A DNA stretch of 59,702 bases from an uncultured Fibrobacter sp. (lineage in GTDB: Bacteria > Fibrobacterota > Chitinivibrionia > Chitinivibrionales > Chitinispirillaceae), in NCBI GenBank assembly GCA_964472925.1, contig CAYYNL010000002.1, positions 1 to 59,702 of the forward strand, given 5' to 3'. The translations under genes were made by a program, and so were the position numbers. Positions within the stretch are counted from its first letter, which is position 1. Every line of letters begins with the position of its first letter. The notes beneath the pieces are model-generated. The model did not search any database and was not told the origin of the DNA. It saw nothing but the letters and a program-made list of their open reading frames with translations. Of the stretch, positions 7,358-55,051 are shown piece by piece.

Positions 7358-7543
7358 TCGACTGCGGATTTATGCTGATAAATGAATAAAAGAAATCAAA
7401 AAGCAGACCGAATAACCAGAAGATAGATGTATATATTCTCTATCCGATGTTCTAAAATCATTAACTCTCCAATGCGCAAATAGTTATTTTAAATGACTGA
7501 TTTTTAAATATCGTTTGATCACATACTTACGAAATTTTTTACC

Positions 7544-9777: not shown

Positions 9778-9822
9778 CATTCTGGTCAGATTCATCACAA
9801 GCCATCTTGAAAGTAAACTATA

Positions 9823-11429: not shown

Positions 11430-11882
11430 AAACCCGTAAATTCTTTTACATCTCTTTCCTATATACTTTTTAGAATGAGAAAAATAACTTCTGCCCTTCT
11501 CTTTTAACAGAAACTGCAACTATTAAGTTATTATATTTAGTGTGAAATTTCAGTATTGCCTGATTAATCAAAGTTGATCAATCAAATAAATTCCAAACAA
11601 AAAAAAGAACAAAAATAAAGACCTCTATCCTGTTTTGAATTTCGAATTCCGTATTTTCCTGCTCCAGTTTCTGTTTAGAATTTGGGTATTGTATTCGTGA
11701 TGATTTGGAGTTTTCAGGTCTGAAATTTAAAACAAACAGCTTTTATAGTGATTTTTTGTTGATTTAATCGGACACTATTGACGAAATTTTAATTTTGTAA
11801 TAAAACTTTTTATCGGACGCTCTATTGAACTCTGAGGAGCTTCTTTCAATTCATTTTGTTACTTGTTCAATCCGGCAAGACA

Positions 11883-37978: not shown

Positions 37979-38162
37979 GATTCAGCCATTTCATTTACAT
38001 CTATGTTCTTCACGCCCGTACTTTAATCTCGCATCCACCATTATTTATCTTTCTTCCCCCAATTAAGTTTTTTTGTAAATTAATAGGAATCCCTTTTTTC
38101 GGGTAATAAATAAAATGTTTGAATAATTAACAGAAAATAATATCTTGAACAAGACGCTCCAA

Positions 38163-41100
38163 TTATTCTCCAGATTGGGCTATCCTGCTCATCACAGCAT
38201 CTCTTTCCACTATCATTTCCGGACATTTAAGACTAAAAAATTCCTTGTCACCAAATGGTAACACTGTTTCTGAAAACTTTACCTGCACTCCGTATGGTAA
38301 AATTATCATATTCTGGATATTTCTTTCCCATCTGGCAATCATCGAAGTACTGTTCTGAATATTTACCTGCGCAGATTCGAATAATCTAAAAATAGCCCAA
38401 TCTCCTTTAAATTTGAGCTCATCAGTATAGTTCTGATGAATAAATAAGCTCAAAGTGATCCCGTTTTCCTGTGTTTCTGAAGGCCACTGAAGACATAAAC
38501 TGAGCTTATCATCAACAATCTTATATTCCTGCTTACCTATATTCAATGTACCTCTAATCTTATTACCAGGTAAAGATATAAAATATAACGACTGAACTTT
38601 CAAAGAACCGTCACTGTTAAATATAGAACTACTTATTTTATCTGCTTTCCTTATCATTTCATAAAATAACTCGTTGAACTGAAGATTAATACACCCCACT
38701 AATTTTGACTTCCATTTATCGCCATCTCTAACCAGATAAAAAGACAGATTATTCAGAATAAACCCAAATAATATACCTGTATTAGGCCGTAAAAACTCTA
38801 TCGCTGCATCCAACGGTGCATCCTCTTTTGTCTTGTAAAAAGGATATTTCCCTGACAATTTGCTATTATAGAAATTATATACATTTCTATACCAGATATC
38901 ATTGATCTCTTCCGAGATTAAACTAATAATAGTTTCTGCAGCCATTTCTAAAGGCTTTCTGATAACTGAAATCATGGCAGGTTGTAAATATTCTGGCATT
39001 GACATTATCAGTTTTTCAGTTACTCTCCATGCGTTTAACAATGGATCTTGATCAGTTCCATTAAAAACTTCCAGAAAATTTTTGCTTCCTGCACAGCTTA
39101 TCATTTTATCAGAAATAATATTTAGCTTTTCCTTGTATTCTGATAAGCCCTGTGACCTGACAAGAACCATCAATGGTTTAAAAAACTGATCAATTTTACT
39201 CAGGGTATCTTTTTTCAATATGGCATCATTGGCTACAGAAATATGTTTTTTAACAGATGTGATATTTTTTGCGGTACAACTCTTTGCAGCATTTATCAAA
39301 GCCTTCTCTTTAGGTAATGTATTTACCTTAGATAGTTTTATAACATTATCCAAAAAAACAGAAATGTCAGAACCCTCCACTGTAAGTTTTCTTAAAAATT
39401 GAGCCATACCAGAAATACCTTCCGGTTTCTGGTAATAGACTGATTCCAAAAACGATAACCATTCCCTGCATACATCATCGATATACATGGAATCCAGATC
39501 TGATTTTAATTTTTTTTCATCCTTTATTTCATATCTGATACCATTTTCACCTGTAACCCAGTCTATTATTATAGGATTCTTGATCGAGATTGATATCTCA
39601 TTTTTTACGTACTTGTCCCATCCTTCCTGTGTATAAATAGTATTGATTCTTTTTTTGCTTAAAATTACTCCGTCCCCAATCGAAATCAATGAAGAAGTTT
39701 TCTGTAATCGGCTGGCAAGCGATTCGTAGATAATTTTCGCATCCGGAATCTGTGCAAGATGATTCCTTGCCTGCTTCACTAAGAACGGATTCTGCTGAAT
39801 CAAAGGCATTTCACCAGTTTTTAAAAAATAATTGTATAACCCGATATTCTTTTTCAGTATTGTCTCCAGATTCATCGGCAACTTTTTTATTTTTTTTAGA
39901 TTGATCATAAAAGGGAAAAAGTCATTTTCTATTGTTTCTCGAATAACCACTGTATCTATTCTACTCTGATTTATAGCAACTTCTTCAGAAATAGACAAAT
40001 AAGTTTTTAAATACCTGTAAAGAGATAAGTAATTTTCATATGTCAGATTGTAATTGGATGCGCTGATATTTTTAATACAAGATTCAAGGTATGCTGCCAT
40101 AGGAACACTTAAAAGGTTATATGCCTGTTGAATGTAGATCCTTTTCAATTTATCATAAGTTCTCTCAGTTTTTACAAACCCTATTCCATAGGATAAAGGC
40201 ACTCCAGTCTTGTGAAATGTCCTGAATTTTTCAACCATCTCAGATATATTTTGCATTTGTGTATAAGCATCTATCATTTTACCGTTTTTGGAATAATTCT
40301 TTGTAATTTTTTCATTAATTTGGCCTTTTAATTTTTGTGCTTTTTCATAAGAAAAGAACAGATACAATAACATAAAAATAAAAACCAGAGAATATACCCC
40401 GCACAATGTATAGTATTTTATGCGACCTTTTTTTGTTGTACTCCTGGTTCCCTTCAAAATCTGAATACCACTGGGGAAAACCTCAAAAAATAACCTTTCA
40501 ATAAATAACGTTCCTGGTTTTCGAAATGACTTTTGTTCTGTTCCCCTGAAATAATCCTCATTTCTATGTGGGTTTAGTGGATGACATATTATTGTTTGTG
40601 ATAATTTTGAAGAGATCACACATTCTTTTGGATTTGTTCCTTTTATTTCATTTGTATTACAGCTAACAAAATAAAACCCTTTGAAAACTGGTTTACCTTC
40701 GTATGGATTATCTTTGAACAATTCTTCAAAAAAATCACCAATTTTTTTCTTTATTCCCTCAAATTCAACTAAAAATTGACTTATGAGTCTTCGTGTATTA
40801 TTATTGTTTTCTTTTGCAGATCTTTTCAGATAAAAAGATTTAAGAGAATTACAGATTATTTCGTACTCTTTATTAAACTCTATGCGGGGGAAATCTTTCA
40901 TCCCCTCATTAGCAAATGTAGCGCCTAAAATCTGATCAGACCATTTTTCTGAACCATTATAAAAATATTCTGTAAACCCTGGCATTGAATCCATTTTACT
41001 GAAAATGCAAAATACTGGTAGTTCAATTCCCCAATATCTTATCATTTCATCATATTTACTTCTCAGTTCTTTTGCTGTTTTTCTGATACTCTGCTGAGAG

Positions 41101-41558
41101 CCATTGATTATGCAACCAATATCTATAATACAAATAGTACAATCGACAGGTCTTTTCCGACGTATCTTTGCCAAAGACTGATAAACTGATTCAAATAACT
41201 CATTATTTTCTGAATTGTATAATTTTCCTGGAAAATCTAACCATATAGCATTATTTCCTGAGAACCATTTTATCCCAGATGAGCTTTCATCATCATTGTC
41301 TATGGGATATCTGAACTGAAAACTTAGTCCAGATTCAGCCAATACAGTACTCTTTCCACTATTTTCAGGCCCGGTTATCATGAACCACGGGATATCATAC
41401 AAAGCATGATTTATAAATAATCTTCCTGGCTTCACCGTTTTTAAATAGCTCTTTATCGCAGTTTTAAACTCTTTCTGGACCTGATATGACATCTGATTTT
41501 CTATTGAAAATGAGTGAGATAGTTTTTTATTGGTCTTTTCTTTCTTCATAAATAACAT
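38163..41558 (-). CDS. tssM: type VI secretion membrane subunit TssM (IcmF family), N-terminally truncated architecture
   Basis: LYDIPWFMITGPENSGKSTVL (TssM Walker A region) at residues 54-73. Single TM near residues 382-404. C-terminal IcmF_C-like region (SGKYPFYK ... LQWPSE ... KGDWAIFRLFESA). Confidence 0.85.
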   Translation of the reverse strand: MLFMKKEKTNKKLSHSFSIENQMSYQVQKEFKTAIKSYLKTVKPGRLFINHALYDIPWFMITGPENSGKSTVLAESGLSFQFRYPIDNDDESSSGIKWFSGNNAIWLDFPGKLYNSENNELFESVYQSLAKIRRKRPVDCTICIIDIGCIINGSQQSIRKTAKELRSKYDEMIRYWGIELPVFCIFSKMDSMPGFTEYFYNGSEKWSDQILGATFANEGMKDFPRIEFNKEYEIICNSLKSFYLKRSAKENNNNTRRLISQFLVEFEGIKKKIGDFFEELFKDNPYEGKPVFKGFYFVSCNTNEIKGTNPKECVISSKLSQTIICHPLNPHRNEDYFRGTEQKSFRKPGTLFIERLFFEVFPSGIQILKGTRSTTKKGRIKYYTLCGVYSLVFIFMLLYLFFSYEKAQKLKGQINEKITKNYSKNGKMIDAYTQMQNISEMVEKFRTFHKTGVPLSYGIGFVKTERTYDKLKRIYIQQAYNLLSVPMAAYLESCIKNISASNYNLTYENYLSLYRYLKTYLSISEEVAINQSRIDTVVIRETIENDFFPFMINLKKIKKLPMNLETILKKNIGLYNYFLKTGEMPLIQQNPFLVKQARNHLAQIPDAKIIYESLASRLQKTSSLISIGDGVILSKKRINTIYTQEGWDKYVKNEISISIKNPIIIDWVTGENGIRYEIKDEKKLKSDLDSMYIDDVCREWLSFLESVYYQKPEGISGMAQFLRKLTVEGSDISVFLDNVIKLSKVNTLPKEKALINAAKSCTAKNITSVKKHISVANDAILKKDTLSKIDQFFKPLMVLVRSQGLSEYKEKLNIISDKMISCAGSKNFLEVFNGTDQDPLLNAWRVTEKLIMSMPEYLQPAMISVIRKPLEMAAETIISLISEEINDIWYRNVYNFYNSKLSGKYPFYKTKEDAPLDAAIEFLRPNTGILFGFILNNLSFYLVRDGDKWKSKLVGCINLQFNELFYEMIRKADKISSSIFNSDGSLKVQSLYFISLPGNKIRGTLNIGKQEYKIVDDKLSLCLQWPSETQENGITLSLFIHQNYTDELKFKGDWAIFRLFESAQVNIQNSTSMIARWERNIQNMIILPYGVQVKFSETVLPFGDKEFFSLKCPEMIVERDAVMSRIAQSGE

Positions 41559-41577
41559 CTTTGGCCATCTTTTTCTT

Positions 41578-42513
41578 TCAGTTTTTTCCTTGAATTACCA
41601 ACCAATACTCTTCACCATTTCCCCCTGGTTCACCACATATACTGTCAATTCCTAAAGATGCATTATCAGTTCCCAGATTGACGGAAATCATGTTTTCTGT
41701 TGTATATTTCACTTTCACATCATATTCCAGATATTGTGGGAGATAAGAATTTATTATTTTAAAAACACCTGAAATGAAACCTGACCCGCTGTTATAAGAT
41801 CTGATAGAATGAGAATGGTCCAGTTCCAAAATAACCGAAAATTTACCTGACCGATCTATTATTCTTTCTCCCAAAACGATATTATCAGAAAGTACCATAT
41901 CTTTGCCAAGCACCCCTAAACAATCAACCTTCACCCATTGTGAACACCATTGCTCGATATATACTTTCACTCCATCACAATAATCACTTATCATTTCAAT
42001 AAGACAATTAATATTTCCATATACTCTTGTCATTAAACCATAACAGTATGATAAATCTATTTCTTCCTTATTCGATTGTATGGATTTTGGAGCCTGACTT
42101 TTCAGAAAGAAGCTTATATCATTTTTTGATAATGGAAATTGATAACATTTTTTCCATGCCTGAAAAAATAAAACATATAGTCGGTTGTCAAAAATGTTTA
42201 AAAAATCGGTTAAGGGGTTCTTCTCACGACTGTGCATTGCTCCATACTCTAAAAAATAGTTTGGCAAAGGAGAACTAATCCCCATAAGCCCTAAAAAAGA
42301 AAGCACTACATTCAAACCATCTTGATCTCTGACTACCTTTTCTACATCACTGCAAGGAAATGCTATTTCCTGATTAGATGACAATCTTATAAGCCTGGAC
42401 CATGAACTATACTCCCCTGCATTAATACCGAAATACTCTTCCATCATCACCAAAATTTGGAATGCATCGAACTCATGACCCCTTTTAAGTAAATCATTTA
42501 TCAGATCAGGCAT
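41578..42513 (-). CDS. tssG: type VI secretion baseplate subunit TssG
   Basis: 311 aa. N-terminal FDAFQILVMMEEYF (TssG F-x-F-Q-x-x-x-x-L-E pattern). Directly follows tssF. Confidence 0.8.
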   Translation of the reverse strand: MPDLINDLLKRGHEFDAFQILVMMEEYFGINAGEYSSWSRLIRLSSNQEIAFPCSDVEKVVRDQDGLNVVLSFLGLMGISSPLPNYFLEYGAMHSREKNPLTDFLNIFDNRLYVLFFQAWKKCYQFPLSKNDISFFLKSQAPKSIQSNKEEIDLSYCYGLMTRVYGNINCLIEMISDYCDGVKVYIEQWCSQWVKVDCLGVLGKDMVLSDNIVLGERIIDRSGKFSVILELDHSHSIRSYNSGSGFISGVFKIINSYLPQYLEYDVKVKYTTENMISVNLGTDNASLGIDSICGEPGGNGEEYWLVIQGKN

Positions 42514-42526
42514 TCATTTACCTTTT

Positions 42527-44251
42527 TTATAACAGATTCCAGGTCAGTATTTTATCGGAAGGTTTCAAAATAAACTGAAGCTCACAGAAATTATTTACTT
42601 GCATATATTGATTAAACAGATTCAAAAGTATCAGTCCAAACAGATGAAGGTCTTGTGTATCTTTAAACACCTCCTCTTCAATGGTAACAACAAAACGTAT
42701 CCCGAATATGAGACAACCCCTATATGCTTTATGCACCGGTTCGCTTTTTACATCGGTAACAGATTCTATTATGTAATTTTTCTCTTCAAGACCTGACCAG
42801 TTATATAGATGAAGATATTTCCTTAGCACTTCTTTATCTGCTAATCTTTTTATATTTGCCACCAGATTAGTATGAAAAGCCCATACATATTCATCATTTT
42901 CTGGAGGAGATACCGGCAATGATGGCCGTGTAATATTGGAAATTTTTATGTAATCAGGAAAACCTTTTCCTAAACTGTTAATATCTCCTTCATAAACCAT
43001 GTCTCTGGGAAACCTTCCGTTTGTGCACCATGCTTCAATTACTATTATCTCTTCCTTTATCTCTTTTCCGAAAAGATTAGAACCTCCAAACGAAATATTC
43101 ATCTGCCGCTTTCCTTCTGCAGTATAAACGAATCGTGTGGTATATGTATTGGCAGATCTATTTCTGACATTTCTAAATGTATAGTAAGGCTCATACACAG
43201 TTTTCTCACCTGTTACTTTGTTTATTCCTGTTACAGAATGAATACTATGTACAGCCATATTTTCAGATTCATAATCTGCAACCACCCGATATTCAGGCTG
43301 TGTCCCGTTTTTCACCACAGGTTCTGCGTTCTTTAGAAACATATTTACAACAGGACTACAATATAGCCTGAATATGGAAGAGGAAAATTCTCTTCCCACA
43401 GGAAACCGTTCTGAAATGGTTATTCTTATGATAATTGTCTCAGGAGTCGTTTGGGGCTCTGGCAGAGTATCTATTCCTCTGAATTCAATGAATTGAAACT
43501 TTTCAGGAAATGCAAAATATTCCTTTAATAAATTATGTCCATAGAAAGATCGTTTGGAAGTCGGTAAAATTGTCTCATCGATCTCAAAACCTCCAGCTTT
43601 AATGGCTTCCCTTGGATCGATGGAGTAATGCGTTCCATCTTTTGTATATTGCACTTCGAACTTTTTCGCTTCAGTGGTAAATAAACGATGCAAAGTCATG
43701 GCAACAGGATATTCTGCATATAGAAAGATGCTTATTTTTTTTAAGTCGTACTTTTCCCATTTGACCGAAGTATCCAGACTGAATTCAAAAGTAAAAACGT
43801 CGTTATTCTGGTTATCACTTTCTTTTTTTACTGCAACTAATAATAATGGATTAAATACTATCGGTTTAACAGTTCTGAACCTGCATATATCCAAACCAGG
43901 ACCTATTTGACCGGTAGTTATTTCTGATCCTGCAGGTAAGATTCTGCTCTCTTGAAGAAATCCTGCTCGTGGCTCAAATTGGACTATGGCCAAAGATGGT
44001 ATTTCCTGGAAAAACTGTGGCCATATCAGATTTATAAGTCCTTCTGTCAACCTGGGCAGAGATTCATCCAGTTTCTCACGAATCCTTCCTGCAATAAATG
44101 CAAAACCCTCAAATAAGCGTTCCACATATGGATCCCGATCCCCAAGAGAATCGATATTAAGATAACGTGCAAGCTGTGGATGAGCTTTGGCAAATTCAGC
44201 TCCGGACTCATAAAGATATCGAAGTTCCTCTTCGTAATATTTTTCTATCAC
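42527..44251 (-). CDS. tssF: type VI secretion baseplate subunit TssF
   Basis: KYYEEELRYLYESGAEFAKAHPQLARYL ... DPYVERLFEGFAFIAGRIREKLDESLPRLTEGLINLIWPQF is the canonical TssF N-terminus. Confidence 0.9.
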   Translation of the reverse strand: MIEKYYEEELRYLYESGAEFAKAHPQLARYLNIDSLGDRDPYVERLFEGFAFIAGRIREKLDESLPRLTEGLINLIWPQFFQEIPSLAIVQFEPRAGFLQESRILPAGSEITTGQIGPGLDICRFRTVKPIVFNPLLLVAVKKESDNQNNDVFTFEFSLDTSVKWEKYDLKKISIFLYAEYPVAMTLHRLFTTEAKKFEVQYTKDGTHYSIDPREAIKAGGFEIDETILPTSKRSFYGHNLLKEYFAFPEKFQFIEFRGIDTLPEPQTTPETIIIRITISERFPVGREFSSSIFRLYCSPVVNMFLKNAEPVVKNGTQPEYRVVADYESENMAVHSIHSVTGINKVTGEKTVYEPYYTFRNVRNRSANTYTTRFVYTAEGKRQMNISFGGSNLFGKEIKEEIIVIEAWCTNGRFPRDMVYEGDINSLGKGFPDYIKISNITRPSLPVSPPENDEYVWAFHTNLVANIKRLADKEVLRKYLHLYNWSGLEEKNYIIESVTDVKSEPVHKAYRGCLIFGIRFVVTIEEEVFKDTQDLHLFGLILLNLFNQYMQVNNFCELQFILKPSDKILTWNLL

Positions 44252-44691
44252 TTTTTAACCTCCTGATTCATTTTGTTGGAAATTTCAGGAGGTTGATTTG
44301 GAATAAGAACCGTATGGAACATTACTTCTGGTCCTTCTATAATTTCTGCTGATATAACAAAAAAGATATTGCCACTATTTCCTTCCGATTCTAATGCTTC
44401 TACCTGGACATTCTTAAGCCTTGTTTCATACTTTTTAACTGTATCCCTTATAGCTTCCTTTAATCTTCTTATTCCTTCGGGTGTTGATCGGTAAATTTCT
44501 GAAAACTCCGGAATTCCATAATCTGCCAGATGTTGAATTGAACCACGCCTAGTGTTAAGAAGACGAAAGAGATGATCCATGATTGATTTTGTTTTTTGAT
44601 AACCCGCTGGCACCGATTCAACAGGATTTCCATCCAGAAATTTTCCAGTCAGACATTCAAATAAACCTGTCTTCACCCATTTTTCTCCCAT
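44248..44691 (-). CDS. tssE: type VI secretion baseplate subunit TssE (gp25-like)
   Basis: SIMDHLFRLLNTRRGSIQHLADYGIPEF is the gp25/TssE signature. Start moved to ATG 44691 because the ORF-track start at 44793 overlaps hcp by 35 nt. ATGA overlap with tssF. Confidence 0.8.
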   Translation of the reverse strand: MGEKWVKTGLFECLTGKFLDGNPVESVPAGYQKTKSIMDHLFRLLNTRRGSIQHLADYGIPEFSEIYRSTPEGIRRLKEAIRDTVKKYETRLKNVQVEALESEGNSGNIFFVISAEIIEGPEVMFHTVLIPNQPPEISNKMNQEVKK

Positions 44692-44758
44692 CCTGCTTTG
44701 ATTAAAACCCAAGAAAAACCGATCCTCCGGCTTTTTCCGGAGGATTTTAATTTTTCTC

Positions 44759-45235
44759 TTAACGACCTTCCAACCAGGAATCGGTATGCACATACCCCCC
44801 TTCCGGATACTCCCAGGTTATCTTTCCATATCTGAAACTTACTTTTTCCATATGCACAAATCGTTCAAATTCTCTGGCTTTTACATTATACATAATCGGT
44901 TCTACAGAACAGACTTTTACAGTTTCCAGAAGATGACTGAAATAAAGCACCTCTGCCCCCTGATCATCGATTTTATACCAATCCACTTTCATTTTATCGT
45001 ATGTTATCCCTTCACAGACTGCTTTATAAAGAAGTGGAGAAGATTGGTCAAATGCTTTTATGATCTGAAAGGCTTCATGTTTCCTGGTTCCGGTTAATGC
45101 ACCTGTATCCGGGTCGGTAGGGATCCTAACTTCATGGTGAAACTCCAAAACCTCAATACTGTTTTCTCTGCCAGCAACAGTACATCCTCCCTTAATTTTG
45201 CCATCATTAATCCACATGTAGGCTGGTATAGGCAT
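44759..45235 (-). CDS. hcp: type VI secretion tube protein Hcp (TssD)
   Basis: 158 aa. MPIPAYMWINDGKIKGGCTVAGRENSIEVLEFHHEVRIPTDPDTGALTGTRKHEAF matches the Hcp1 family pattern. Confidence 0.9.
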   Translation of the reverse strand: MPIPAYMWINDGKIKGGCTVAGRENSIEVLEFHHEVRIPTDPDTGALTGTRKHEAFQIIKAFDQSSPLLYKAVCEGITYDKMKVDWYKIDDQGAEVLYFSHLLETVKVCSVEPIMYNVKAREFERFVHMEKVSFRYGKITWEYPEGGYVHTDSWLEGR

Positions 45236-45338
45236 AAGATCTCCTTTAATGTTAATGGTGAAGCAAATTACTCATTATTTTTTGAGCATCTTTTTATTTA
45301 TGATTAATTACGCAGATCATATACAATTGATAATGCTC

Positions 45339-46895
45339 TTATTTGCCTTTGGGCATCTGACTTACAAGAAATAGACTTACATCAATTCCTTCTATCTGAA
45401 AATGCGGTATAACCGATAATGAAACAGAAAAGAATCCTGGATTATCTGTTAACTCATTTACACTCACCTCGGCTGCTTTCAATGGATGTGTTGCAATAAG
45501 CTGCGGACCCGGATCAGGCATTTCGGTAACCAATCCCTTTATCCATTTATTTAACTCCTCCTGAAGTACTGCTTTGCTTTTAGTAGTTCCGATATTTTCC
45601 CGTTGGATTATTTTCAGATAATGAGCTATCCTGGAAATCATGAAAATGTAAGGCAATCTTGAATTAACCTTTAAATTCGCATTTACATCAGGATTATCAG
45701 TTGGAACAATTTTCTGAGCAGAATTGGCAGAAAAGAAACATGCGTAATTGCTATTCTTATAATATGACAATGGAATAAATCCTTCATTGGCGAACTCAAA
45801 TTCGCGGGTTTCCGGTATTAATATCTCGGTAGGAATCTTCATCTGCGTTCCCTTTCCGGCATCGAAAAAATGAACCGGCAAATCCTCTATCTTTCCTCCC
45901 GATTCAGGGCCACGAATCTGAACACACCATCCATTTTCAACAAAAGAACGAATCATATTGGAAGCAAATGCGAATGAACTGTTTCCCCACAGATATTTCT
46001 GATGATCCTTACCTGTTACTTTTTCAGTGTAATTAAATTCCTTTACTGCAACAGTATCTGGTCCGTATGGAAGCCTCAATGTAAATCTGGGCAAAGTTAA
46101 ACCCACATATCTGGCATCCTCTGTTCTCCTAAATGAATTCCACCTCATAAATTCTGAACGATCCATGAATGTATGCAGATCTTCTATTTTTGTCAATTCA
46201 CTAAAGTCTTTTTTGCCGAAAAAACCTGGTGAAACAGCACCAATAAAAGGGCAGTGACATGCAGCAGCAACCTTGGAAATATTTTGGAGAAATCCAATAT
46301 CCTCTGCAGTATTATTGAATTCAAAATTGGAGATCATTGCCCCATAAGGTTCTCCACCAGGAGTATCATATTCATCTGTGTATACCTGTTTATATATACC
46401 GGATTGAATTATTTCTGCAGCATCCTCGAAATCTTCATTAATCACCTCCTTTGCTACATCCAGAAGATCTATTTTCACATTTTTGTGAAAGTCAGTCCTG
46501 TCTACCAGAAATTTCAGACTCCTCCAGGCGGATTCCATACTTTGAAAATCCGGATGATGCATTATTTCATCAAGCTGTTCTGATATTTTACTGTCAATTT
46601 GAGCGATTATCATGTCAATAAGATTTTTATCAACCTTTTCTATGCTCATTTCATTAAGAACAATACTTTCCATGAAAAATTTCAATGCTGCACCTATTCG
46701 TTCATTTGAACTGCTCTCTGCCAAAGCTGATATTTCCGCATATATCATCACATCAATCTCTTTTTGTGGAATTGTCAGCTCCATAGAGTCGTATATATAT
46801 TGTAAATGATTTTGAATTTCAGTAGGGTTCTTCTGCATTTCCATCTTTTCATTTAACATGAATTGCTCCTCACCATAACCATTTTTACGATTCAA
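45339..46895 (-). CDS. tssC: type VI secretion contractile sheath large subunit TssC
   Basis: 518 aa of VipB/EvpB-type sequence (WRSLKFLVDRTD, GEPYGAMISNFEF, AAACHCPFIGAVSP, RLPYGP, NAQKI). Follows tssB. Confidence 0.9.
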   Translation of the reverse strand: MNRKNGYGEEQFMLNEKMEMQKNPTEIQNHLQYIYDSMELTIPQKEIDVMIYAEISALAESSSNERIGAALKFFMESIVLNEMSIEKVDKNLIDMIIAQIDSKISEQLDEIMHHPDFQSMESAWRSLKFLVDRTDFHKNVKIDLLDVAKEVINEDFEDAAEIIQSGIYKQVYTDEYDTPGGEPYGAMISNFEFNNTAEDIGFLQNISKVAAACHCPFIGAVSPGFFGKKDFSELTKIEDLHTFMDRSEFMRWNSFRRTEDARYVGLTLPRFTLRLPYGPDTVAVKEFNYTEKVTGKDHQKYLWGNSSFAFASNMIRSFVENGWCVQIRGPESGGKIEDLPVHFFDAGKGTQMKIPTEILIPETREFEFANEGFIPLSYYKNSNYACFFSANSAQKIVPTDNPDVNANLKVNSRLPYIFMISRIAHYLKIIQRENIGTTKSKAVLQEELNKWIKGLVTEMPDPGPQLIATHPLKAAEVSVNELTDNPGFFSVSLSVIPHFQIEGIDVSLFLVSQMPKGK

Positions 46896-46935
46896 TTAAT
46901 ATTAAACCCAAATCATATCCGAAACAGGTTAAATC

Positions 46936-47457
46936 TTAAGCCTCATTGACAGTTTTCTCTGTTGAATCCGGAATTAGTTTTTTTAATTCTCCTAGTAATG
47001 CTTTTGAAGATTCGTTATCTTTTAAGATCCCCTCCAGACGTCTTCTGAATTCTCTGTTATCTATCAGATTCGATTTAAGATCTTTGAGTAGATTCCTCGC
47101 GGCTAAAAGCCTGCTTATAGCTGGAATATTTTTGGCCACATACTCAGGTCTGAATGATTTCATATTTTTGATTTTTAAATGAACTTCAAGCATTTTATCC
47201 TTTTCTCTGGAAAGCTTGTCATCAACTGCATAATCCAACGACAGACCCATCCCCTCCATAACCTGCTCCAGATTATTTTTGTTGATACTAATTTTTTCCA
47301 TATCAGAAATTCTCTCAGATTTCTTCTTCTTTGAAAAATCACCTGTAACCAGAATTTTAAATGGCAACTCCACTTTTTTCCTGGTATCCCCTTTTCCTAC
47401 ATCCAGTTTTAAATTGATCCTGGCAGGCGGTATCTCATTTTGAAAACTCCCGGCCAT
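46936..47457 (-). CDS. tssB: type VI secretion contractile sheath small subunit TssB
   Basis: MAGSFQNEIPPARINLKLDVGKGDTRKKVELPFKILVTGDFS is canonical VipA/TssB. ATG 47457 (AAAGG upstream) preferred. The ORF-track start at 47475 would overlap tssA. Confidence 0.9.
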   Translation of the reverse strand: MAGSFQNEIPPARINLKLDVGKGDTRKKVELPFKILVTGDFSKKKKSERISDMEKISINKNNLEQVMEGMGLSLDYAVDDKLSREKDKMLEVHLKIKNMKSFRPEYVAKNIPAISRLLAARNLLKDLKSNLIDNREFRRRLEGILKDNESSKALLGELKKLIPDSTEKTVNEA

Positions 47458-47461
47458 ATTA

Positions 47462-48976
47462 TTACCTTTCATCAAAAGATTGATAATTTAATGCAGCTCC
47501 CGGATCCAAATTACACATCATTTTCAGAGCATTATCTCTTTTATCAATAAGTACAGATCTTTTATCTCCAGATTTATCTTTTGCCATTAACTCATAGGTT
47601 TTTACCATAAGATTAAGAAGATCCACAACCAGCGATGGTACCCATTTGGCCAAATAATAAGTATTAGCCAGTTCGTAAAGTGATTCCAGCATATATAAAG
47701 CAATTTCAAGCCTTTTTACTTCGAGCATATAAGAAACAATCGATAATCTTCTTCTGAAATTATCAAGCTCGTTTCCGTCACTTCTAATTTCATCTACCAG
47801 ATGCACCAGATCGGTTTCAGTATTGCTTGCAACTACAGAGGACTTTATGCCTTCCTTTTCCACTCTGCCTGAATTATCACCCACTTTATTAAAGTTGCAA
47901 AACAGCGGGATTATATCATGCTTAATCCATCTTTCTGTTTCAGAATCACTGAATGGTGTACCATCTATAAATTTCAATTCCCTTATTTGCGGATATTTGT
48001 TCAGAAACATGGCAGTTTCAAAAGTAATAGTCTCCTTAACTCCAGCAAATGTAACCCCGAGATTATCAGCAGCATTAGCTGAAATTCTTTGCAATTCAAA
48101 CCAGAAAAGCGTATTGCCTGAACTGAACATTTTTTCCGATTGAACTAATGCAGATTTGTAATCTCTCTTTTCCAGTAATGATATCAAATACTCTCTTCTT
48201 TCTTTTGATGGGGGTTCGATCTTTGTTATTTTTTCTTCTGCAAATGGAAGCATTTCAACATTACTCCAACGTATAATCCTCATTAACCGGTAACCGGCAG
48301 TTTTTTGCGGCTCCTTCTCTATTAAAAACAAAGCACACTTGCGAATCGTATCGAATGCAGCTTTGGCTGTTTCAAATTCACCAGATGATTCGCTTATTAT
48401 TGAATTCTCCTTTGAAACATATTCTTTGGAAGATTCTTTATTTTCAATTGGTTGTGAAATTTCCGCCTGTTTCTTCTCAGTCAATTGTCGCCATTTTTTA
48501 GCGAATGCATAAAGCTTCTCTGGAAAAGGGGATGATTCTGGAAAATTTAAGGTGAGAGAGTCCCTCAGATTATCTAATACCGAAGCCAACCGATCCATTT
48601 GATCATGAGCATCACTGGAGACTGTAGCGTTTTCAAGCATCTCTGTAAACCTGCTCTCTTCCAGCCATTTAAATGCCATCCTTTTTCCCTGCAGCCGCCT
48701 GGGAAATAAAGAATCAAATCTTTCTTTGGTTAAGTGTACCAATGCTTCGAAAAGATCAACAAAATAGCACCAGTTCTCTTTTTTCAGATAACATAATGCC
48801 AGGTAAGAAAACACACGAATGTCTTTACTTTTATTATTCAGTATATAACAGGCTTTTTCTTCAACAAGCTCGTAATCAATACATTCTGACTTGCTGACTT
48901 CTTGCTTAATAGTTTCGAAATCAGAGTCGTAATTTAACTCACTTCCACAGTCATTTTCACTAAAGACTGCCTTCAA
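47462..48976 (-). CDS. tssA: TssA-like protein (ImpA N-terminal domain family)
   Basis: N-terminal ENDCGSELNYDSDFETIKQEVSK fits the ImpA_N motif (G-x-D/E-L-x-Y-D-x-x-F). First gene of the locus. TTG start in the ORF track, true start uncertain. C-terminal domain not recognised. Confidence 0.65.
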   Translation of the reverse strand: MKAVFSENDCGSELNYDSDFETIKQEVSKSECIDYELVEEKACYILNNKSKDIRVFSYLALCYLKKENWCYFVDLFEALVHLTKERFDSLFPRRLQGKRMAFKWLEESRFTEMLENATVSSDAHDQMDRLASVLDNLRDSLTLNFPESSPFPEKLYAFAKKWRQLTEKKQAEISQPIENKESSKEYVSKENSIISESSGEFETAKAAFDTIRKCALFLIEKEPQKTAGYRLMRIIRWSNVEMLPFAEEKITKIEPPSKERREYLISLLEKRDYKSALVQSEKMFSSGNTLFWFELQRISANAADNLGVTFAGVKETITFETAMFLNKYPQIRELKFIDGTPFSDSETERWIKHDIIPLFCNFNKVGDNSGRVEKEGIKSSVVASNTETDLVHLVDEIRSDGNELDNFRRRLSIVSYMLEVKRLEIALYMLESLYELANTYYLAKWVPSLVVDLLNLMVKTYELMAKDKSGDKRSVLIDKRDNALKMMCNLDPGAALNYQSFDER

Positions 48977-49743
48977 TGAATTTAAAAGGATTTCAGAAAT
49001 GAGATCCTCCTGGTTGTTTTTTATTCCAGTTTTTAAACCTTCAGAATTCCAGAAACAGCTCAGCCAGAAATGAGAAAAAAGGAAAGGAAATTTAAATGGA
49101 ATACTCAGAAAAGATGAAGCATAAAATGGAAATGCTGTTACATTAATATAATTGAAAGTAATACTGTTAAAAACAAGTATCTTTCAAATTGGCTGACATT
49201 TCCATCAAAACGCTCCTGATAAGAACGATTTTCTTATGTATAATATAATTTGGGATTAGACTGACTGTGTATTTCAGTTTTCACTTTTTTTATTAATTTA
49301 TACAATAGGAATGGCCAAATTTGCTGATGGTTGCCTGGGAGTTCCCGGATTTTTTCCTTTTTTCACCATGTTCATCCAAATAGAAGCTTATCTCTTCAGA
49401 CACGAATGAAGCATTGCATAAACCTGACAAATTGAAGAATTGTTTAAATAACTCAGTTATAATTTATTTTTCCCTATCATTAAAGACAGCAGTAAAAACA
49501 GCATTATTTCTGATGATGGCTATTTAGGCAGTAAGTGAAATTAGTTCAATTTTAATATTATCAAATCAAAGTCTCTCTACTAAAGAATATTAAGGCATTA
49601 TGTATTTTCGCTATTTAGTTCTGGTTTTCTCTCTGATCCGATTCTCTTTCTGATTATCCCTGTTTATTCCTTTTCTTTTAATATTTCTCTCTTATTACTG
49701 TATTATTTCGATTTAACTCTGATTTCAACAAGGACTCCCGCTT

Positions 49744-51237
49744 ATGAATAAATACTATCTGGAAATAATTCGCGGAATTGACCTCGGAAAAAGATATGCA
49801 TTGGTTGAAGGGGTAATTACGATAGGTCGCAGTGATGATAATCTGATAATTCTCAATGAAAACGAACTGTTGGTTTCAAATCATCACGCTATTCTTTATA
49901 TATACCCAAATAATATCTGCATCCAGGATATAAACAGCAGAAATGGAACATATCTTAATGGCCAACGAATCAGTCTCAATGAGGTAAAGCTAAATGATAT
50001 AATCGGCTTCGGTGAAAAAGGTCCCCAACTGAAACTTATCTGTACTACTGAAGATATCACTCAAAATGAGTCCGTTTTGCAAACACCATGTATCTCTAAG
50101 GTTGAAATCTCCTGCATTAATGATAGCCCACCCGAATCAGCATCGATCTTCACTACAGATATTGAGCATAAAATTATGAATAACAGTATTAATGCAGATG
50201 AATTGACGAAGTTAATGGAGCAAAGTGCTTCTCTTAAGAAGATACTTCAAAAAGGAAATCTTCCTGAAACTCAATCTAATCTTCTCTTTAGCGATTACGG
50301 AACCCATCAAAGAAACCGTATCCGTATTATAATGCTGACATGTTCCATCATTCTCTTTTCACTTTTCTCTATAGCATATCTTACAATCCGGTTTTTTCAA
50401 ATTAAATCAAAACCAGATTCAGAACTCATCTCTAAAATGACAGAGAATAAAAAATCAATTGATTCACTACTTTTTAGTTTCAGTCAACCAATCCAGATAG
50501 ATCATCTTAGATCTCTATTCAATACATGGGATTATCAACCTGTCATTAAAGATACAATAGATTTTTTTCTTTATGAGATATTATCCGGTTTTGGGCACAC
50601 CGACTACCAGATCCCTCCACAGATGTCAACTACCGTTAAACGTCATCTGGAAACCTATTCCCAAACCCAAAGATTAATGACCAGCAGATTATTAAAAAGA
50701 AAAGAGCTCTACTTTCCTATGATTCAGAAAATATTTTCGGAGAAAAATATACCGTCTCAGTTAGCCTATATTTCTATGCTTGAGAGCGGTTTTAATCCTA
50801 AAGCATTGAGTCATGCAGGTGCAAGGGGCCTGTGGCAGTTTATGCCACATACTGCACGAAAATATGGATTGAAAGTTGACAGCTTTTCTGATGAACGTAT
50901 TGAGCCACAAAAAGCCACTTATGCAGCAGCAGAATATCTTAGAGACCTTATTGGAATTTTTGGAGCAAAAAGTTCAATTATGCTTGTCATGGCAGCTTAC
51001 AACGCAGGTGAGGAAAGAATTATGAATGCTCTTCGGAAAATTGAAGATCCTATTCGTGACCGTGATTTCTGGTATATTTATAGAATGGGTTACCTGTCAG
51101 AGGAAACAAATGAGTATATTCCCAGAATACTTGCTTTAATGATAATAGATAATAATCGTGAGTATTTCGGCTTCACAAATCAAGATATCGCGACTACCCA
51201 AATTGGCGAAACTGAGGATGACTATTGCAATTGGTGA
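49744..51237 (+). CDS. FHA domain - TM helix - MltD-type lytic transglycosylase (SLT) fusion protein
   Basis: FHA: ITIGRSDDNLIILNENELLVSNHHAILYIYPNNICIQDINSRNGTYLNGQRI. TM near residues 194-216. SLT: AYISMLESGFNPKALSHAGARGLWQFMPHTARKYGL ... AAAEYLRDL ... LVMAAYNAGEERI. Confidence 0.8.
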   Translation: MNKYYLEIIRGIDLGKRYALVEGVITIGRSDDNLIILNENELLVSNHHAILYIYPNNICIQDINSRNGTYLNGQRISLNEVKLNDIIGFGEKGPQLKLICTTEDITQNESVLQTPCISKVEISCINDSPPESASIFTTDIEHKIMNNSINADELTKLMEQSASLKKILQKGNLPETQSNLLFSDYGTHQRNRIRIIMLTCSIILFSLFSIAYLTIRFFQIKSKPDSELISKMTENKKSIDSLLFSFSQPIQIDHLRSLFNTWDYQPVIKDTIDFFLYEILSGFGHTDYQIPPQMSTTVKRHLETYSQTQRLMTSRLLKRKELYFPMIQKIFSEKNIPSQLAYISMLESGFNPKALSHAGARGLWQFMPHTARKYGLKVDSFSDERIEPQKATYAAAEYLRDLIGIFGAKSSIMLVMAAYNAGEERIMNALRKIEDPIRDRDFWYIYRMGYLSEETNEYIPRILALMIIDNNREYFGFTNQDIATTQIGETEDDYCNW

Positions 51238-51346: not shown

Positions 51347-52087
51347 TCAGTTACTTTTCTGAGCCTTAACCACCTTGGTTTCCTGTGCATCCGGACATTG
51401 TTCCACCAGTTTTTTCCAGGTTAGCGTTTTAGATTTGTCCTTCTTCTGCCTTTCGTATACCAGACCAAGCTTGTAAAGAGAAACACAGAGTTTAGTTCCC
51501 TGTGGATAATTTTTGATATAACTAAGATAGGCATTTTCTGCATCACTGTATTTTCTGGTGGCATAAAAACATTCCGCAATCCAGTACTGGGCTTCCTGAG
51601 CCAGTGATGATTCCTGGTACTGATTTGTAATGTTCTGAAAAGCACCTAATGCGATATCATACCTTCCTGCATTAAAATCGCTCATAGCCAGTTGAAAAAA
51701 CTTTTCAGTTTCAGAGGCCCTGGAACTTGAAGCAGAGTCAGCAATAAGCTTTGCTTCGAGTCTTTTGTTGAATTCAGCCGTTTTTTCATCGATCTTTGAT
51801 AGCTTGAACTGACTCTCCGACAAATTGCCATCGATAGTCGATACTTTTCTGTCCAGCTCGTTGAATCTTATCTGAATATCTGCTCGGAGCAGCCTTAATA
51901 CCTCTGACTGATTTTTCTGTTCTTCCAGCATTTTCTTCTGCATGGCTGTGAGCTCCGATTGTAACGAATCAACCTGAGCCTTTACCGCACGCAATTCCTG
52001 AGTCCTTAACATAGTAAGATTTGTACAGCCCTGAAACTGTGATACGCTAAAAAGAAATACAACCGTTAGAATAAACTTTTTAATCAT
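51347..52087 (-). CDS. cpoB: Tol-Pal system protein CpoB/YbgF (coiled coil + TPR lipoprotein)
   Basis: Lipobox FQGC, coiled-coil N-terminal half, TPR half (AGRYDIALGAFQNITNQYQESSLAQEAQYWIAECFYATRKYSDAENAYLSYIKNYPQGTK). Last gene of the tol-pal operon. ATG 52087 with GAGGTG upstream. Confidence 0.75.
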   Translation of the reverse strand: MIKKFILTVVFLFSVSQFQGCTNLTMLRTQELRAVKAQVDSLQSELTAMQKKMLEEQKNQSEVLRLLRADIQIRFNELDRKVSTIDGNLSESQFKLSKIDEKTAEFNKRLEAKLIADSASSSRASETEKFFQLAMSDFNAGRYDIALGAFQNITNQYQESSLAQEAQYWIAECFYATRKYSDAENAYLSYIKNYPQGTKLCVSLYKLGLVYERQKKDKSKTLTWKKLVEQCPDAQETKVVKAQKSN

Positions 52088-52129
52088 CAACTCACCTCTT
52101 CCAAAATATCTATCCGATATAACCGGCAA

Positions 52130-52678
52130 TTATTTAGCCAGCACCTTAAATTCAGCCCGACGGTTCTGCCTGTGACAGGACTCATCGGCACAACCAGTGA
52201 TCAGCGGCATCTCCTTACCCAAAGAAGTTATTTCTATGCGAATCGGCAAAATCCCCAGATTCAAAAGATAATCCCTCACCGCCCTGGCCCTTCTCTCACC
52301 AAGTCCCATATTATACTCTGATGATCCCCGCTCATCACAGTGCCCCTGGATAAGAATGCGAATACCGGAATATTCATTCAGAAATTTTGCGGCAGTAAAC
52401 AGTTTCTGCACAGCTTCATCATCAAGACTATAGCTGTTAAACTCAAAATGGATGGCATTAAGATTCTCTTTGACCTTTGATGCGATCTCACTTGCCAGAT
52501 CAGCCTCAATAAATGAAACTTCATCTGTTGTATCTACCCCTTTAAACAGATCCGGCTGTGGAGTAGCTTTCTGCACAGTGTCTCTGGGAACATCCATCAG
52601 GGTAGAAACCTGTTTTCGACACCCGTACACAAATACTGCTACAAACATAAAAAGTATCAGCAGAAAATTTCTTGCCAT
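52130..52678 (-). CDS. pal: peptidoglycan-associated lipoprotein Pal (OmpA-like domain)
   Basis: Lipobox VYGC. OmpA_C motifs IHFEFNSYSL, GHCDERGSSEYNMGLGERRARAV and NRRAEF. ATG 52678 chosen. Confidence 0.85.
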   Translation of the reverse strand: MARNFLLILFMFVAVFVYGCRKQVSTLMDVPRDTVQKATPQPDLFKGVDTTDEVSFIEADLASEIASKVKENLNAIHFEFNSYSLDDEAVQKLFTAAKFLNEYSGIRILIQGHCDERGSSEYNMGLGERRARAVRDYLLNLGILPIRIEITSLGKEMPLITGCADESCHRQNRRAEFKVLAK

Positions 52679-52700
52679 AATAAATTCCTGGTTTTCGGGA

Positions 52701-53945
52701 TTAAAAATCAGACCAATCCGGCATCTTAACATTCCCGGTACTGGTCACCCTGCGAAGTCTGGTACCGTCGGGCTTTACCACATAAAGATCACTATTGCTT
52801 CCTACTGTATTGACAAAAGCTATCAGGTATCCATCCGGTGACCACGCCGGGTATTCGTTATTTCCTCCCAGCTCTGTCACTTTGGTCAATCCGGTTCCAT
52901 CTGGTGCTATTGTCCATATATCGAATTTACCATTGTCCATCGATTGAAAGGCGATTTTATCTCCTTTGGGTGACCAGGCCGGAGAATCGGTATATTTGCT
53001 TTCAAAGGTTAACCGCCTCTGGTTGGCCCCATCAGCATCCATTACATAAATCTGTGGATTACCCGATCTGTCAGAGGTAAAGGCGATCTGATAACCGTTT
53101 GGAGACCATGATGGTGATGTATCCACACCGTAATGAACCGTAAGCTGCCTGACATTTGTACCATCAGGGTTACAGGTATAGATATCGAGATTACCCTTTA
53201 CAGAGGACCCATAGGCAATGGTCCCATCTATGGGCGATACATCCGGACTGGTTGTAATGGCTTTACTGTATATGTGAATTTTTGAAGAGCCATCCGCAAT
53301 AGATCCTTTATACATATCCGGCTTTCCCCTGAGATATGAGATCCACAGGATATTGTTGGCATCGGCAAAGGTGGGGAAAATATTGATCACATTGTTTTTG
53401 GTAATAGTAACCCTGTTATGACCATCAAAATCCATTAGAGCGATATCTTTTCTGTTTCCGGAAGCACTTACGTATAAGATGCGGCTGAGGAATATTCCAC
53501 GATCCCCGAAAAGTATCTCCACAATCTCGTTGGAATAGCGATGGGAAATGGTTCTTATCGATTTCAGATCACCTTTATATTTCTTACCAATTATCAGTTC
53601 CTTTGATGCAGCATCCCTGAGATAGCAATTAACAGTAACCTGAGAACCCTCGATTACATATTCGCCATCGATATAAATTCCCACGCTGGCAGCAGCAAAT
53701 GCCGCACTGTCGTAATCGCCAAGGCTTGTTACTGTAAACCTGCCGCAAAAATCCAGATCAGAAAAGATTATTTTCCAAGGCTGGTTTTCCTCTTCGCTTA
53801 TCACCTTTCCGTTAGTGGAACGGAAATCGATTATCCCAATCGGTATGGAATCAAATTTACTGGCATAAATTTCCAGATCGATTTTTTCTGCATGAATTGC
53901 ACACGTAAGAATCAGAAATGATAAAATGTAAAGTGGTTTCGGCAT
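52701..53945 (-). CDS. tolB: Tol-Pal system beta-propeller protein TolB
   Basis: Repeated propeller blades (SPSWSPNGYQIAFTSDRSGNPQIYVMDADG, SPAWSPKGDKIAFQS, YPAWSPDGYLIAFV). ATG 53945 sits 1 nt after the upstream stop. Confidence 0.9.
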   Translation of the reverse strand: MPKPLYILSFLILTCAIHAEKIDLEIYASKFDSIPIGIIDFRSTNGKVISEEENQPWKIIFSDLDFCGRFTVTSLGDYDSAAFAAASVGIYIDGEYVIEGSQVTVNCYLRDAASKELIIGKKYKGDLKSIRTISHRYSNEIVEILFGDRGIFLSRILYVSASGNRKDIALMDFDGHNRVTITKNNVINIFPTFADANNILWISYLRGKPDMYKGSIADGSSKIHIYSKAITTSPDVSPIDGTIAYGSSVKGNLDIYTCNPDGTNVRQLTVHYGVDTSPSWSPNGYQIAFTSDRSGNPQIYVMDADGANQRRLTFESKYTDSPAWSPKGDKIAFQSMDNGKFDIWTIAPDGTGLTKVTELGGNNEYPAWSPDGYLIAFVNTVGSNSDLYVVKPDGTRLRRVTSTGNVKMPDWSDF

Positions 53946-53946
53946 A

Positions 53947-54609
53947 TTATTTCCTGGTTGGGATAAGGGTACAATTGAGATCCAGTTTATCACCCGAAAA
54001 ACCTGGCGGTAGTTTTCCAAATGGTGCTGCAAGCTTCACTGCACGCAGAGCAATATTATCGATAGTACTGCTGCCAGAAGACTGCCGGATGGAGGGCTCT
54101 GATATGTTTCCATCATTATAAATAATAAAATGCACTACTACCTTTATATGGTGATTCTCTGTTGGAGGATTCCAATACCTTTCAAGTTTCTGCTGAACCT
54201 GGTTAAGATACCAATGAAATTTAAAATCCCCTACAGCAGAAACACTGGTTGGTGCCGGAAGCTCCTCAAGAATAGATGCCAGTTCATCTAAGTTCTCCTC
54301 AACTGCCTTGGAAGGCTCAGTTTTAGGTTGAGGCTTTGCATTTCTATCGGAACTTTTTTTAGTGGAAGGTACCGGTTTCGGTTCAGGTTTAGCTTCCCTG
54401 CGAGCCACTTTCTGCGGAGTCGACGGACGCAGGGGCGACACTAACTGAAAGGTCTGGGGGCGCTGAAATGTTCTAGATTTCCAGGTCAGTTTTAAAATTA
54501 GAGGAATACCAATTAACACCACCAGATGAAAGGCAATGGAGATAACAAAGAAAACCCAGCCACTCTCCTTTTGATAATCGTATGTCATCATCATATCGGA
54601 TCTGGACAT
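53947..54609 (-). CDS. TolA-like / TonB-family energy transducer
   Basis: One N-terminal TM, a Pro/Lys-rich linker (PSTPQKVARREAKPEPKPVPSTKK...KPQPKTEPSK) and a TonB_C-like C-terminal domain. Occupies the tolA position between tolR and tolB. Confidence 0.65.
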   Translation of the reverse strand: MSRSDMMMTYDYQKESGWVFFVISIAFHLVVLIGIPLILKLTWKSRTFQRPQTFQLVSPLRPSTPQKVARREAKPEPKPVPSTKKSSDRNAKPQPKTEPSKAVEENLDELASILEELPAPTSVSAVGDFKFHWYLNQVQQKLERYWNPPTENHHIKVVVHFIIYNDGNISEPSIRQSSGSSTIDNIALRAVKLAAPFGKLPPGFSGDKLDLNCTLIPTRK

Positions 54610-54613
54610 ATTA

Positions 54614-55033
54614 TTACCTTTCGGGAGTCTCTAAAGGCAGTGTCAGAAATCCCAGTTTTACCACCCCCGCTTTCTGTATCTCCCCTATCACCCTTATTAC
54701 CAAACCATAGGGCACCTTGGCATCTGCATTCACAAATACAGGTGTTTCCTTTTCTCCGGCAAATACTTCCCGAAAGCTCTTTCTGAAATCCAGCAGAGAC
54801 ACTTTCTCATAATCGATGTAAATCTCATTTTTCGAATTGATAGTAACCTGAATCGATTTATCTACTTCCACATTTTCGGCATCAGCCTTGGGAAGATCCA
54901 CCTGTACCCCCTGAGTCATCATCGGAGCTGTAATCATGAAAATAATAAGTAAGGCAAATACCACATCGATCAGGTTGGTAAGATTGACATCGCTTATAAC
55001 ATGACGACGCCTGGCTTTTCTTTTTTGGCCCAT
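54614..55033 (-). CDS. tolR: biopolymer transport protein TolR (ExbD family)
   Basis: 139 aa. NLTNLIDVVFALLIIFMITAP is the canonical ExbD/TolR TM segment with the conserved Asp. Confidence 0.8.
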   Translation of the reverse strand: MGQKRKARRRHVISDVNLTNLIDVVFALLIIFMITAPMMTQGVQVDLPKADAENVEVDKSIQVTINSKNEIYIDYEKVSLLDFRKSFREVFAGEKETPVFVNADAKVPYGLVIRVIGEIQKAGVVKLGFLTLPLETPER

Positions 55034-55051
55034 TGTCTGTTCCCCTGCTTC

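Follow-up and report, generated by a model that had tools for sequence, protein, structure and literature searches.

The DNA analysed here, called the window, is a stretch of 59,702 nucleotides (contig CAYYNL010000002.1 of assembly GCA_964472925.1, positions 1 to 59,702). It belongs to an uncultured member of the Fibrobacterota, of the Chitinispirillaceae type, from an anaerobic digester. Part of it is a block of genes for a type VI secretion system (T6SS) of subtype i (T6SS-i), and the subject of this text is one gene of that block, tssM. Its product, TssM, is described as having an N-terminal hairpin of two transmembrane (TM) helices, TM1 and TM2, and a third helix further on (PMC6517824, PMC9952577, PMC11872809). 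The TssM of the window lacks the hairpin and has a single predicted TM helix. This had been proposed in an original prediction made from the window alone; the observation is confirmed, and the interpretation attached to it is partly supported. The gene and its parts, including a nucleoside triphosphatase (NTPase) domain, are as follows.

38163-41558, minus strand: tssM, short form with a single TM helix, 1131 amino acids (open reading frame, Pfam, NCBIfam)
41490-41558, minus strand: lysine-rich N-terminal tail in place of the hairpin, residues 1-23 (alignment with long forms, AlphaFold2)
41346-41372, minus strand: Walker A P-loop GPENSGKST, residues 63-71 (sequence, conserved in the clade)
40428-41210, minus strand: cytoplasmic IcmF-related_N NTPase domain, residues 117-377 (Pfam PF14331, E 8.7e-39)
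40353-40409, minus strand: sole TM helix, residues 384-402, equivalent to the third helix (TMH3) of canonical TssM (Kyte-Doolittle 2.26, AlphaFold2 helix)
38319-40241, minus strand: periplasmic part, with IcmF-related (440-730), IcmF_helical (883-982) and IcmF_C (993-1080) (Pfam)

The protein begins with MLFMKKEKTNKKLSHSFSIENQMSYQVQKEFKTAIKSYLKTVKPGRLFINHALYDIPWFMITGPENSGKST. Residues 53-71 read LYDIPWFMITGPENSGKST and contain the Walker A motif GPENSGKS at 63-70; the original prediction had found the same hallmark and set its start one residue late, at 54. Hydropathy was calculated on the Kyte-Doolittle scale in a 19-residue window, with 1.6 as the threshold for a membrane-grade segment. Only one segment of TssM rises above it, residues 384-402 (TLCGVYSLVFIFMLLYLFF), with a peak of 2.26, and no window before residue 380 reaches it. 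The next-best windows score 1.15 or less; they correspond to a strand of the NTPase fold and to a helix that is conserved in long-form TssMs. Homologues have the same TM segment at an equal relative position.

Family profiles give the same picture. IcmF-related_N (PF14331), IcmF-related (PF06761), IcmF_helical (PF21070) and IcmF_C (PF06744) each match above their gathering cut-offs. The NCBIfam profile TIGR03348, with a curated cut-off of 388.15 bits, scores 388.0 bits (388.3 in a six-frame search). Its match begins only at profile position 81 of 1168 (71 in the six-frame search), and the unmatched first 70-80 positions are those of the TM1-TM2 hairpin. The shortfall in score arises because these positions are missing from TssM.

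An AlphaFold2 model was built from a 20-sequence alignment, with a mean predicted local distance difference test score (pLDDT) of 70 and a predicted template modelling score (pTM) of 0.44. Residues 1-20 are disordered in it (pLDDT about 32) and are followed by helices at 22-41 and 46-55. Strands and helices alternate from residue 58 to about 298, a predicted pattern consistent with a nucleotide-binding fold. A single long helix, 376-423, encloses the hydrophobic segment 384-402. The periplasmic region is modelled as helical and then as a beta-rich C-terminal domain. The assignment of topology thus draws on hydropathy, on the secondary structure of this model and on alignment to homologues that bear the hairpin; the single helix proposed earlier was recovered in both the scan and the model.

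A short N-terminus raises the question of where the gene really starts, and the DNA just upstream of tssM bears on this.

41559-41597, minus strand: tssG-tssM junction, a 19-nucleotide spacer and an in-frame TAA at 41595-41597 (sequence, contigs of public runs)

The tssM frame is closed by this TAA 12 codons 5' of the ATG, and tssG, whose product matches the TssG profile over its full length, ends 19 nucleotides upstream. As had been argued before, there is no room for a split-off upstream reading frame. The junction is identical in public anaerobic-digester sequencing runs, on a single spanning contig in one (X1) and on overlapping or abutting contigs in two others (X2, X3); the source sample of the window may be among those sequenced in these runs. 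Seven related but independent assemblies have an in-frame stop 0-12 codons upstream of the short-form start, and they share the conserved start M-(K/R/L)-L-F-x-K-K. Because independent assemblies begin at the same point, among them one (genome G013) that matches the record of a species described as an isolate, the short form is not an artefact of assembly.

The rest of the genome was searched as well. A six-frame search found a single TssM and no second, canonical one. A hidden Markov model (HMM) was built from 13 long-form hairpins, and no split-off hairpin reading frame was found among the 46,513 frames of the genome (best HMM E 0.012, best tblastn E 0.026). A hidden upstream start and a split N-terminal reading frame are both ruled out by the in-frame stop, the 19-nucleotide spacer and the lack of any hairpin-like reading frame in the genome.

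The short form is not confined to this genome. A word-indexed protein search found 19 further short TssMs of 1126-1155 amino acids from independent assemblies, with 36-79% identity to the query, and none of the 20 members has a hydrophobic segment before Walker A. In a FastTree tree of 175 full-length TssMs the 20 form one clade, with a Shimodaira-Hasegawa-like support of 100, nested among hairpin-bearing TssMs. All members share the same residue at 134 of the 1131 query positions, including G63, G68 and K69 of Walker A, and the P-loop is conserved in 19 of the 20. Conservation down to 36% identity argues for a functional protein, as far as sequence can tell. A profile of the clade also matches the TssM chains of enteroaggregative Escherichia coli (EAEC; 6ixh, 6hs7) with an E of 5e-41, residues 363-1080 aligning with 338-1057.

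One of the short forms is annotated as coming from Chitinispirillum alkaliphilum, which is described as an isolate (PMC4814513), and its N-terminal sequence matches genome G013. The Walker A motif of this protein (P0020) reads GPENCGKK, with lysine replacing Ser/Thr, and is the only non-canonical P-loop of the clade.

The hairpin-bearing relatives (P0021-P0031) are 1190-1238 amino acids long, are 30-33% identical to the query and come from Chitinivibrionales and other Fibrobacterota. They run from MKK through TM1 and TM2 to KKK and are then colinear with the query. In an alignment of N-termini the short-form start coincides exactly with the basic stretch that follows TM2, which indicates that the short gene lost its 5' end and gained a new start codon, and not that it underwent an internal deletion. 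The alignment shows the truncation point at the predicted cytoplasmic end of TM2, and the new start keeps the basic juxtamembrane stretch. Lysine and arginine together number about 6.7 in the 22 aligned N-terminal residues of short forms and 4.7 in those of long forms, by a hand recount that omits the mis-anchored row P0077 and uses rows that are not independent of one another; with P0077 included, the short-form mean is inflated to 11.0. Polybasic enrichment is therefore a weak effect and is given no weight as evidence. No genome among 41 has both a long form and a short form of the query clade (type A), which fits an orthologous replacement.

The position of tssM among its neighbours also differs between the two forms. 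In the window it stands last in a row of T6SS genes.

41578-48976, minus strand: tssG, tssF, tssE, hcp, tssC, tssB and tssA, directly upstream of tssM (Pfam, NCBIfam)

Gene order was surveyed in 34 TssM loci in genomes of the same genus, family and order. The arrangement tssA-B-C-hcp-E-F-G-(clpV)-tssM is present in the window and in nine of the nine scorable loci of short-form relatives; the contig of a tenth relative (G023) is too short to score. Among 19 hairpin-bearing loci, 13 have tssK-tssL-tssM, adjoining a divergent PEGA-domain gene and a Ser/Thr kinase gene, and six have no T6SS neighbour detected upstream or in the available DNA. These arrangements are explained most simply if tssM moved once, from a tssK-tssL-tssM operon to the end of the sheath and baseplate operon, with the first 150-180 nucleotides left behind. 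Judging from their correlation in one clade, loss of the hairpin would have accompanied the move. The T6SS block with the neighbouring gene for an FHA-SLT protein (window 38000-51000) has 32-38% GC against 40-44% in the flanks, and tssM is its most AT-rich part.

The original prediction had linked loss of the hairpin to the absence of tssL and tssK. Both are absent from the window only. Contig C62 of the same genome carries tssK (TIGR03353, 364 bits) and tssL (TIGR03349, 146 bits), each over the cut-off, in the region C62:15121-22792 (7122-14793 of locus L004). There tssL-tssK is divergent from genes for a PEGA-domain protein and a membrane Ser/Thr kinase and from vgrG. The slot after tssL, filled by a long tssM in relatives, is empty. 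All ten short-form relatives searched have tssL, and the congener G002 has tssL-tssK, PEGA-kinase-vgrG, FHA-SLT and tssA...tssG-tssM in one super-cluster. Genes missing from a window, as tssK and tssL are here, need not be missing from the genome.

Loss of TssK and TssL is thus ruled out as the cause of hairpin loss, since both are encoded in the genome; moreover, genome G030 has a TssM (equivalent to P0051) that lost the hairpin independently, and its gene immediately follows tssK-tssL. Nor was a correlated change seen in TssL. TssL here has an ordinary C-tail anchor, with its TM segment at 212-230, and the TssLs of short-form and long-form groups show no systematic difference (no extra TM segment, peptidoglycan-binding domain or altered anchor).

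The T6SS-i core components present in the genome are TssA, B, C, Hcp, E, F, G, K, L, M, VgrG and PAAR. Of their genes, tssK, tssL and vgrG are on C62, and the window carries tssA-G, hcp, tssM and the gene listed below.

58502-59701, plus strand: PAAR-domain gene, open at the contig end (Pfam PF05488)

TssJ gave no match in the genome with TIGR03352 or PF12790. Among 41 genomes within the order only four have PF12790 matches, which lie beside a third, unrelated TssM type, and TssJ was likewise not found for hairpin-bearing relatives of the same T6SS lineage. Its absence marks the whole lineage, hairpin or not, and a tie between hairpin loss and TssJ loss is ruled out by those long-form relatives. 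The earlier suggestion of a differently anchored membrane complex survives only weakly: the complex would have fewer TM helices, and no recognisable TssJ was found, but the TssL anchor is ordinary and the lack of TssJ is unconnected with the hairpin.

A dedicated ClpV (TssH) was not found in the genome, the best TIGR03345 match scoring 826.8 bits, below the cut-off of 884.95. The protein concerned (C165:109-2601, L051) is ClpB, with 1340 bits against TIGR03346 (cut-off 1232). More distant short-form genera do have clpV, placed between tssG and tssM.

On the other side of tssA lies an accessory gene.

49744-51237, plus strand: FHA domain, TM segment (195-213) and periplasmic lytic transglycosylase of SLT/MltD type, divergent from tssA (Pfam, NCBIfam, hydropathy)

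Homologues of this FHA-SLT gene adjoin the T6SS in relatives, including G002 and G011, and also adjoin orphan tssM paralogues of a second type, type B. Beside it in the window, at 51347-55795 on the minus strand, is a complete Tol-Pal cluster, with TolQ/ExbB, TolR/ExbD, a TolA of the TonB_C type, TolB, an OmpA-family Pal and a tetratricopeptide repeat protein of the CpoB/YbgF type. The congener G002 has vgrG-kinase-PEGA-tssK-tssL at the position of this cluster.

Another gene seen near tssM in relatives encodes a protein of 291-295 amino acids with a signal peptide and two C-terminal TM segments (L018:15497-16372 in G011; L020:5217-6104 in G009). Neither Pfam nor NCBIfam gives a match to it. 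The genome of the window has paralogues on contigs C30, C10 and C19, and the protein is also encoded beside long-form loci.

Hairpin loss can also be found elsewhere in the TssM family. A wider survey covered the best 150 of about 4,800 TssM representative clusters from an exhaustive search. Among these best 150, about 16 full-length TssMs outside the query clade have no TM segment before Walker A: a six-member type B clade, a three-member clade in which two of three clusters are named Chitinispirillales, the pair P0048 and P0051, P0061, and four singletons, at least one of them a partial gene. The tree of 175 TssMs requires at least 9-10 changes of hairpin state. The hairpin has been lost in at least four or five other TssM lineages, and its loss is therefore recurrent; it is concentrated in this branch of the family. 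In the mainstream TssM group it is rare (4 of 120 sequences, artefacts included).

The type B paralogue (L045-L049, in G005, G002, G020, G009 and G007) is 1094-1111 amino acids long, about 24% identical to the query and hairpin-less. Its gene adjoins a divergent FHA-TM-SLT gene of 598-624 amino acids and a Ser/Thr kinase of 908-964. Four of its five loci have no further T6SS core gene in the available DNA; in G007 a PEGA gene and tssK follow. A further set from Joint Genome Institute metagenomes (P0033-P0035, 1105-1111 amino acids) lacks Walker A, has a single hydrophobic segment at the N-terminus besides the usual later TM helix, and may be a two-TM class.

The explanation that we consider probable, with good confidence, is that the gene in the window is an orthologous T6SS-i tssM that lost the 5' end encoding TM1-TM2 in the common ancestor of several genera, and that its single-pass product still works with TssL and the baseplate. 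The loss would have taken place alongside the relocation of tssM. The protein would be oriented N-in/C-out, since deleting a helical hairpin leaves the orientation of the remaining protein unchanged. It would consist of a cytoplasmic P-loop NTPase (about residues 24-380), a signal-anchor helix (384-402) and normal periplasmic IcmF domains, and would be targeted by the internal signal-anchor helix instead of an early TM1. Its partner would be the C-tail-anchored TssL, whose gene lies with tssK on C62, and the cytoplasmic domain of TssM would dock the TssK/F/G/E baseplate. The inner-membrane base would then have about half the usual number of TM helices, and the hairpin would be dispensable in the short-form lineage.

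Several points weigh against this explanation. The TIGR03348 score lies exactly at the curated cut-off, and the predicted topology depends on hydropathy and on a model whose confidence is no more than moderate. Relocation and truncation are linked by a correlation in one clade, which counts as a single event; the G030/P0051 protein lost its hairpin with no relocation, its gene still lying directly after tssK-tssL. Finally, a system with neither a dedicated ClpV nor a recognisable TssJ may, on sequence alone, be partly decayed.

The rival explanations differ in how much of the evidence they can accommodate. It is barely credible that the short tssM is an artefact of gene calling or assembly with a true start further upstream. 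Most relatives are metagenome-assembled genomes, it is true, and P0128, a hairpin-less singleton from another part of the tree, is an incomplete gene that lies at the end of its contig. Against this stand the stop 12 codons upstream and the fully matched tssG 19 nucleotides away, the recurrence of this junction and start in seven other assemblies (one matches the record of the C. alkaliphilum isolate), and public-run contigs that cross the junction with no difference. The system could instead be decaying or non-functional, with the truncated tssM a tolerated lesion, which we judge to be improbable. ClpV and TssJ are undetectable in the genome, its T6SS genes are split over at least two contigs, and the block is more AT-rich than its flanks, as described above. 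The 12 other core genes, however, are all intact full-length reading frames with strong family matches. The short tssM is itself open and conserved, P-loop included, across genera down to 36% identity, and distant short-form genera retain clpV between tssG and tssM. T6SSs lacking ClpV or TssJ are also known to work: the Acinetobacter T6SS has no TssJ (PMC10564176), and in Francisella novicida ClpB is implicated in disassembly of the T6SS (PMC6063899).

Only a little less improbable is a hairpin supplied in trans by a small membrane protein, either the PEGA-domain protein encoded next to tssK or the 291-amino-acid two-TM protein encoded after short tssM in some genera. The PEGA protein of C62 starts with a signal-like region and has two hydrophobic segments towards the C-terminus (219-237 and 263-281), a protein of the same layout (291-295 amino acids) is encoded directly after short tssM in G009, G011, G020 and G022, and the two-TM accessory TsmK of Acinetobacter stabilises TssL-TssM (PMC10564176). 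Neither gene is specific to hairpin loss, because each also occurs with TssMs that have the hairpin: PEGA at 12 long-form loci, and the two-TM protein in G006 and G014. After cleavage of a signal peptide their hairpin would run from periplasm through a cytoplasmic loop to periplasm, opposite to TM1-TM2. The window has no such gene adjoining tssM, and the genome has no reading frame resembling a long-form hairpin. A more speculative extension of the preferred explanation, still unlikely but less so than these rivals, is a naturally minimised T6SS-i membrane complex. It would combine hairpin-less TssM with C-tail TssL, would lack TssJ (and ClpV in this genus) and would have about 20 TM helices in place of 40. 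The polybasic N-terminus M-K/R-L-F-K-K-x-K-K would serve as a peripheral lipid-binding anchor in place of TM1-TM2, and the repeated losses in Chitinivibrionales would reflect a lineage-specific property of the envelope.

If the preferred explanation, 5' truncation of an orthologous tssM, holds, the hairpin has been deleted naturally in the short-form clade from a TssM that is otherwise intact, which makes the clade a natural experiment on the role of TM1-TM2. The recurrence of the deletion in other lineages and its presence in the cultured C. alkaliphilum would argue that TssM can function without the hairpin in these lineages. The natural breakpoint offers a concrete design for hairpin deletion tests in model systems. 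For annotation, hairpin loss explains TssM scores at or just under the NCBIfam cut-off.

Like canonical T6SS-i TssMs (EAEC Sci-1, 6ixh and 6hs7; Agrobacterium TssM/ImpL), the protein has the four IcmF/TssM Pfam domains, a Walker A P-loop, and one TM helix ahead of a large periplasmic domain with a C-terminal beta domain. As in canonical T6SS-i, tssM shares a cluster with tssA-G and hcp, and the genome also has genes for TssK and TssL. Unlike canonical TssM, it has no TM1-TM2 hairpin and no detectable TssJ, and its gene follows tssG instead of tssL. In the cryo-electron microscopy structure of the EAEC TssJLM complex the cytoplasmic and membrane base is too poorly resolved for the cytoplasmic domains to be fitted (PMC6517824).

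The hairpin-bearing TssMs of Chitinivibrionales and other Fibrobacterota belong to the same T6SS lineage and match the short form over its full length after the hairpin, at 30-33% identity. Their systems share the PEGA protein, Ser/Thr kinase and FHA-SLT accessories and also lack TssJ. They differ in keeping the first 50-60 residues (TM1-TM2) and in mostly having tssK-tssL-tssM.

The nearest precedent for lineage-specific remodelling is the non-canonical membrane complex of Acinetobacter baumannii, TssL-TssM-TsmK-TagX-TslA (PMC10564176). TssJ is absent from both systems, and in both the cluster encodes an enzyme that cleaves peptidoglycan, TagX in A. baumannii and FHA-SLT here. No loss of the TssM hairpin is described there (PMC10564176), and a review gives Acinetobacter TssM three TM segments (PMC9952577), whereas the loss here is within TssM itself; no TsmK homologue is evident.

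A search of the open-access literature found no account of a TssM clade with a single TM helix, subscription journals lying outside its scope. Variation in TM number is visible in bulk statistics, since Boyer et al. (2009) predicted three TM helices in 63% of IcmF/COG3523 sequences and at least one in 84% (PMC2660368). That study did not define or place a single-TM class or separate one from prediction noise; here hairpin loss is placed in a clade and tied to a breakpoint and a change of gene order. The short TssM is a real, conserved and clade-specific variant in an otherwise recognisable T6SS-i, a trimmed form of a known machine and not a new kind.

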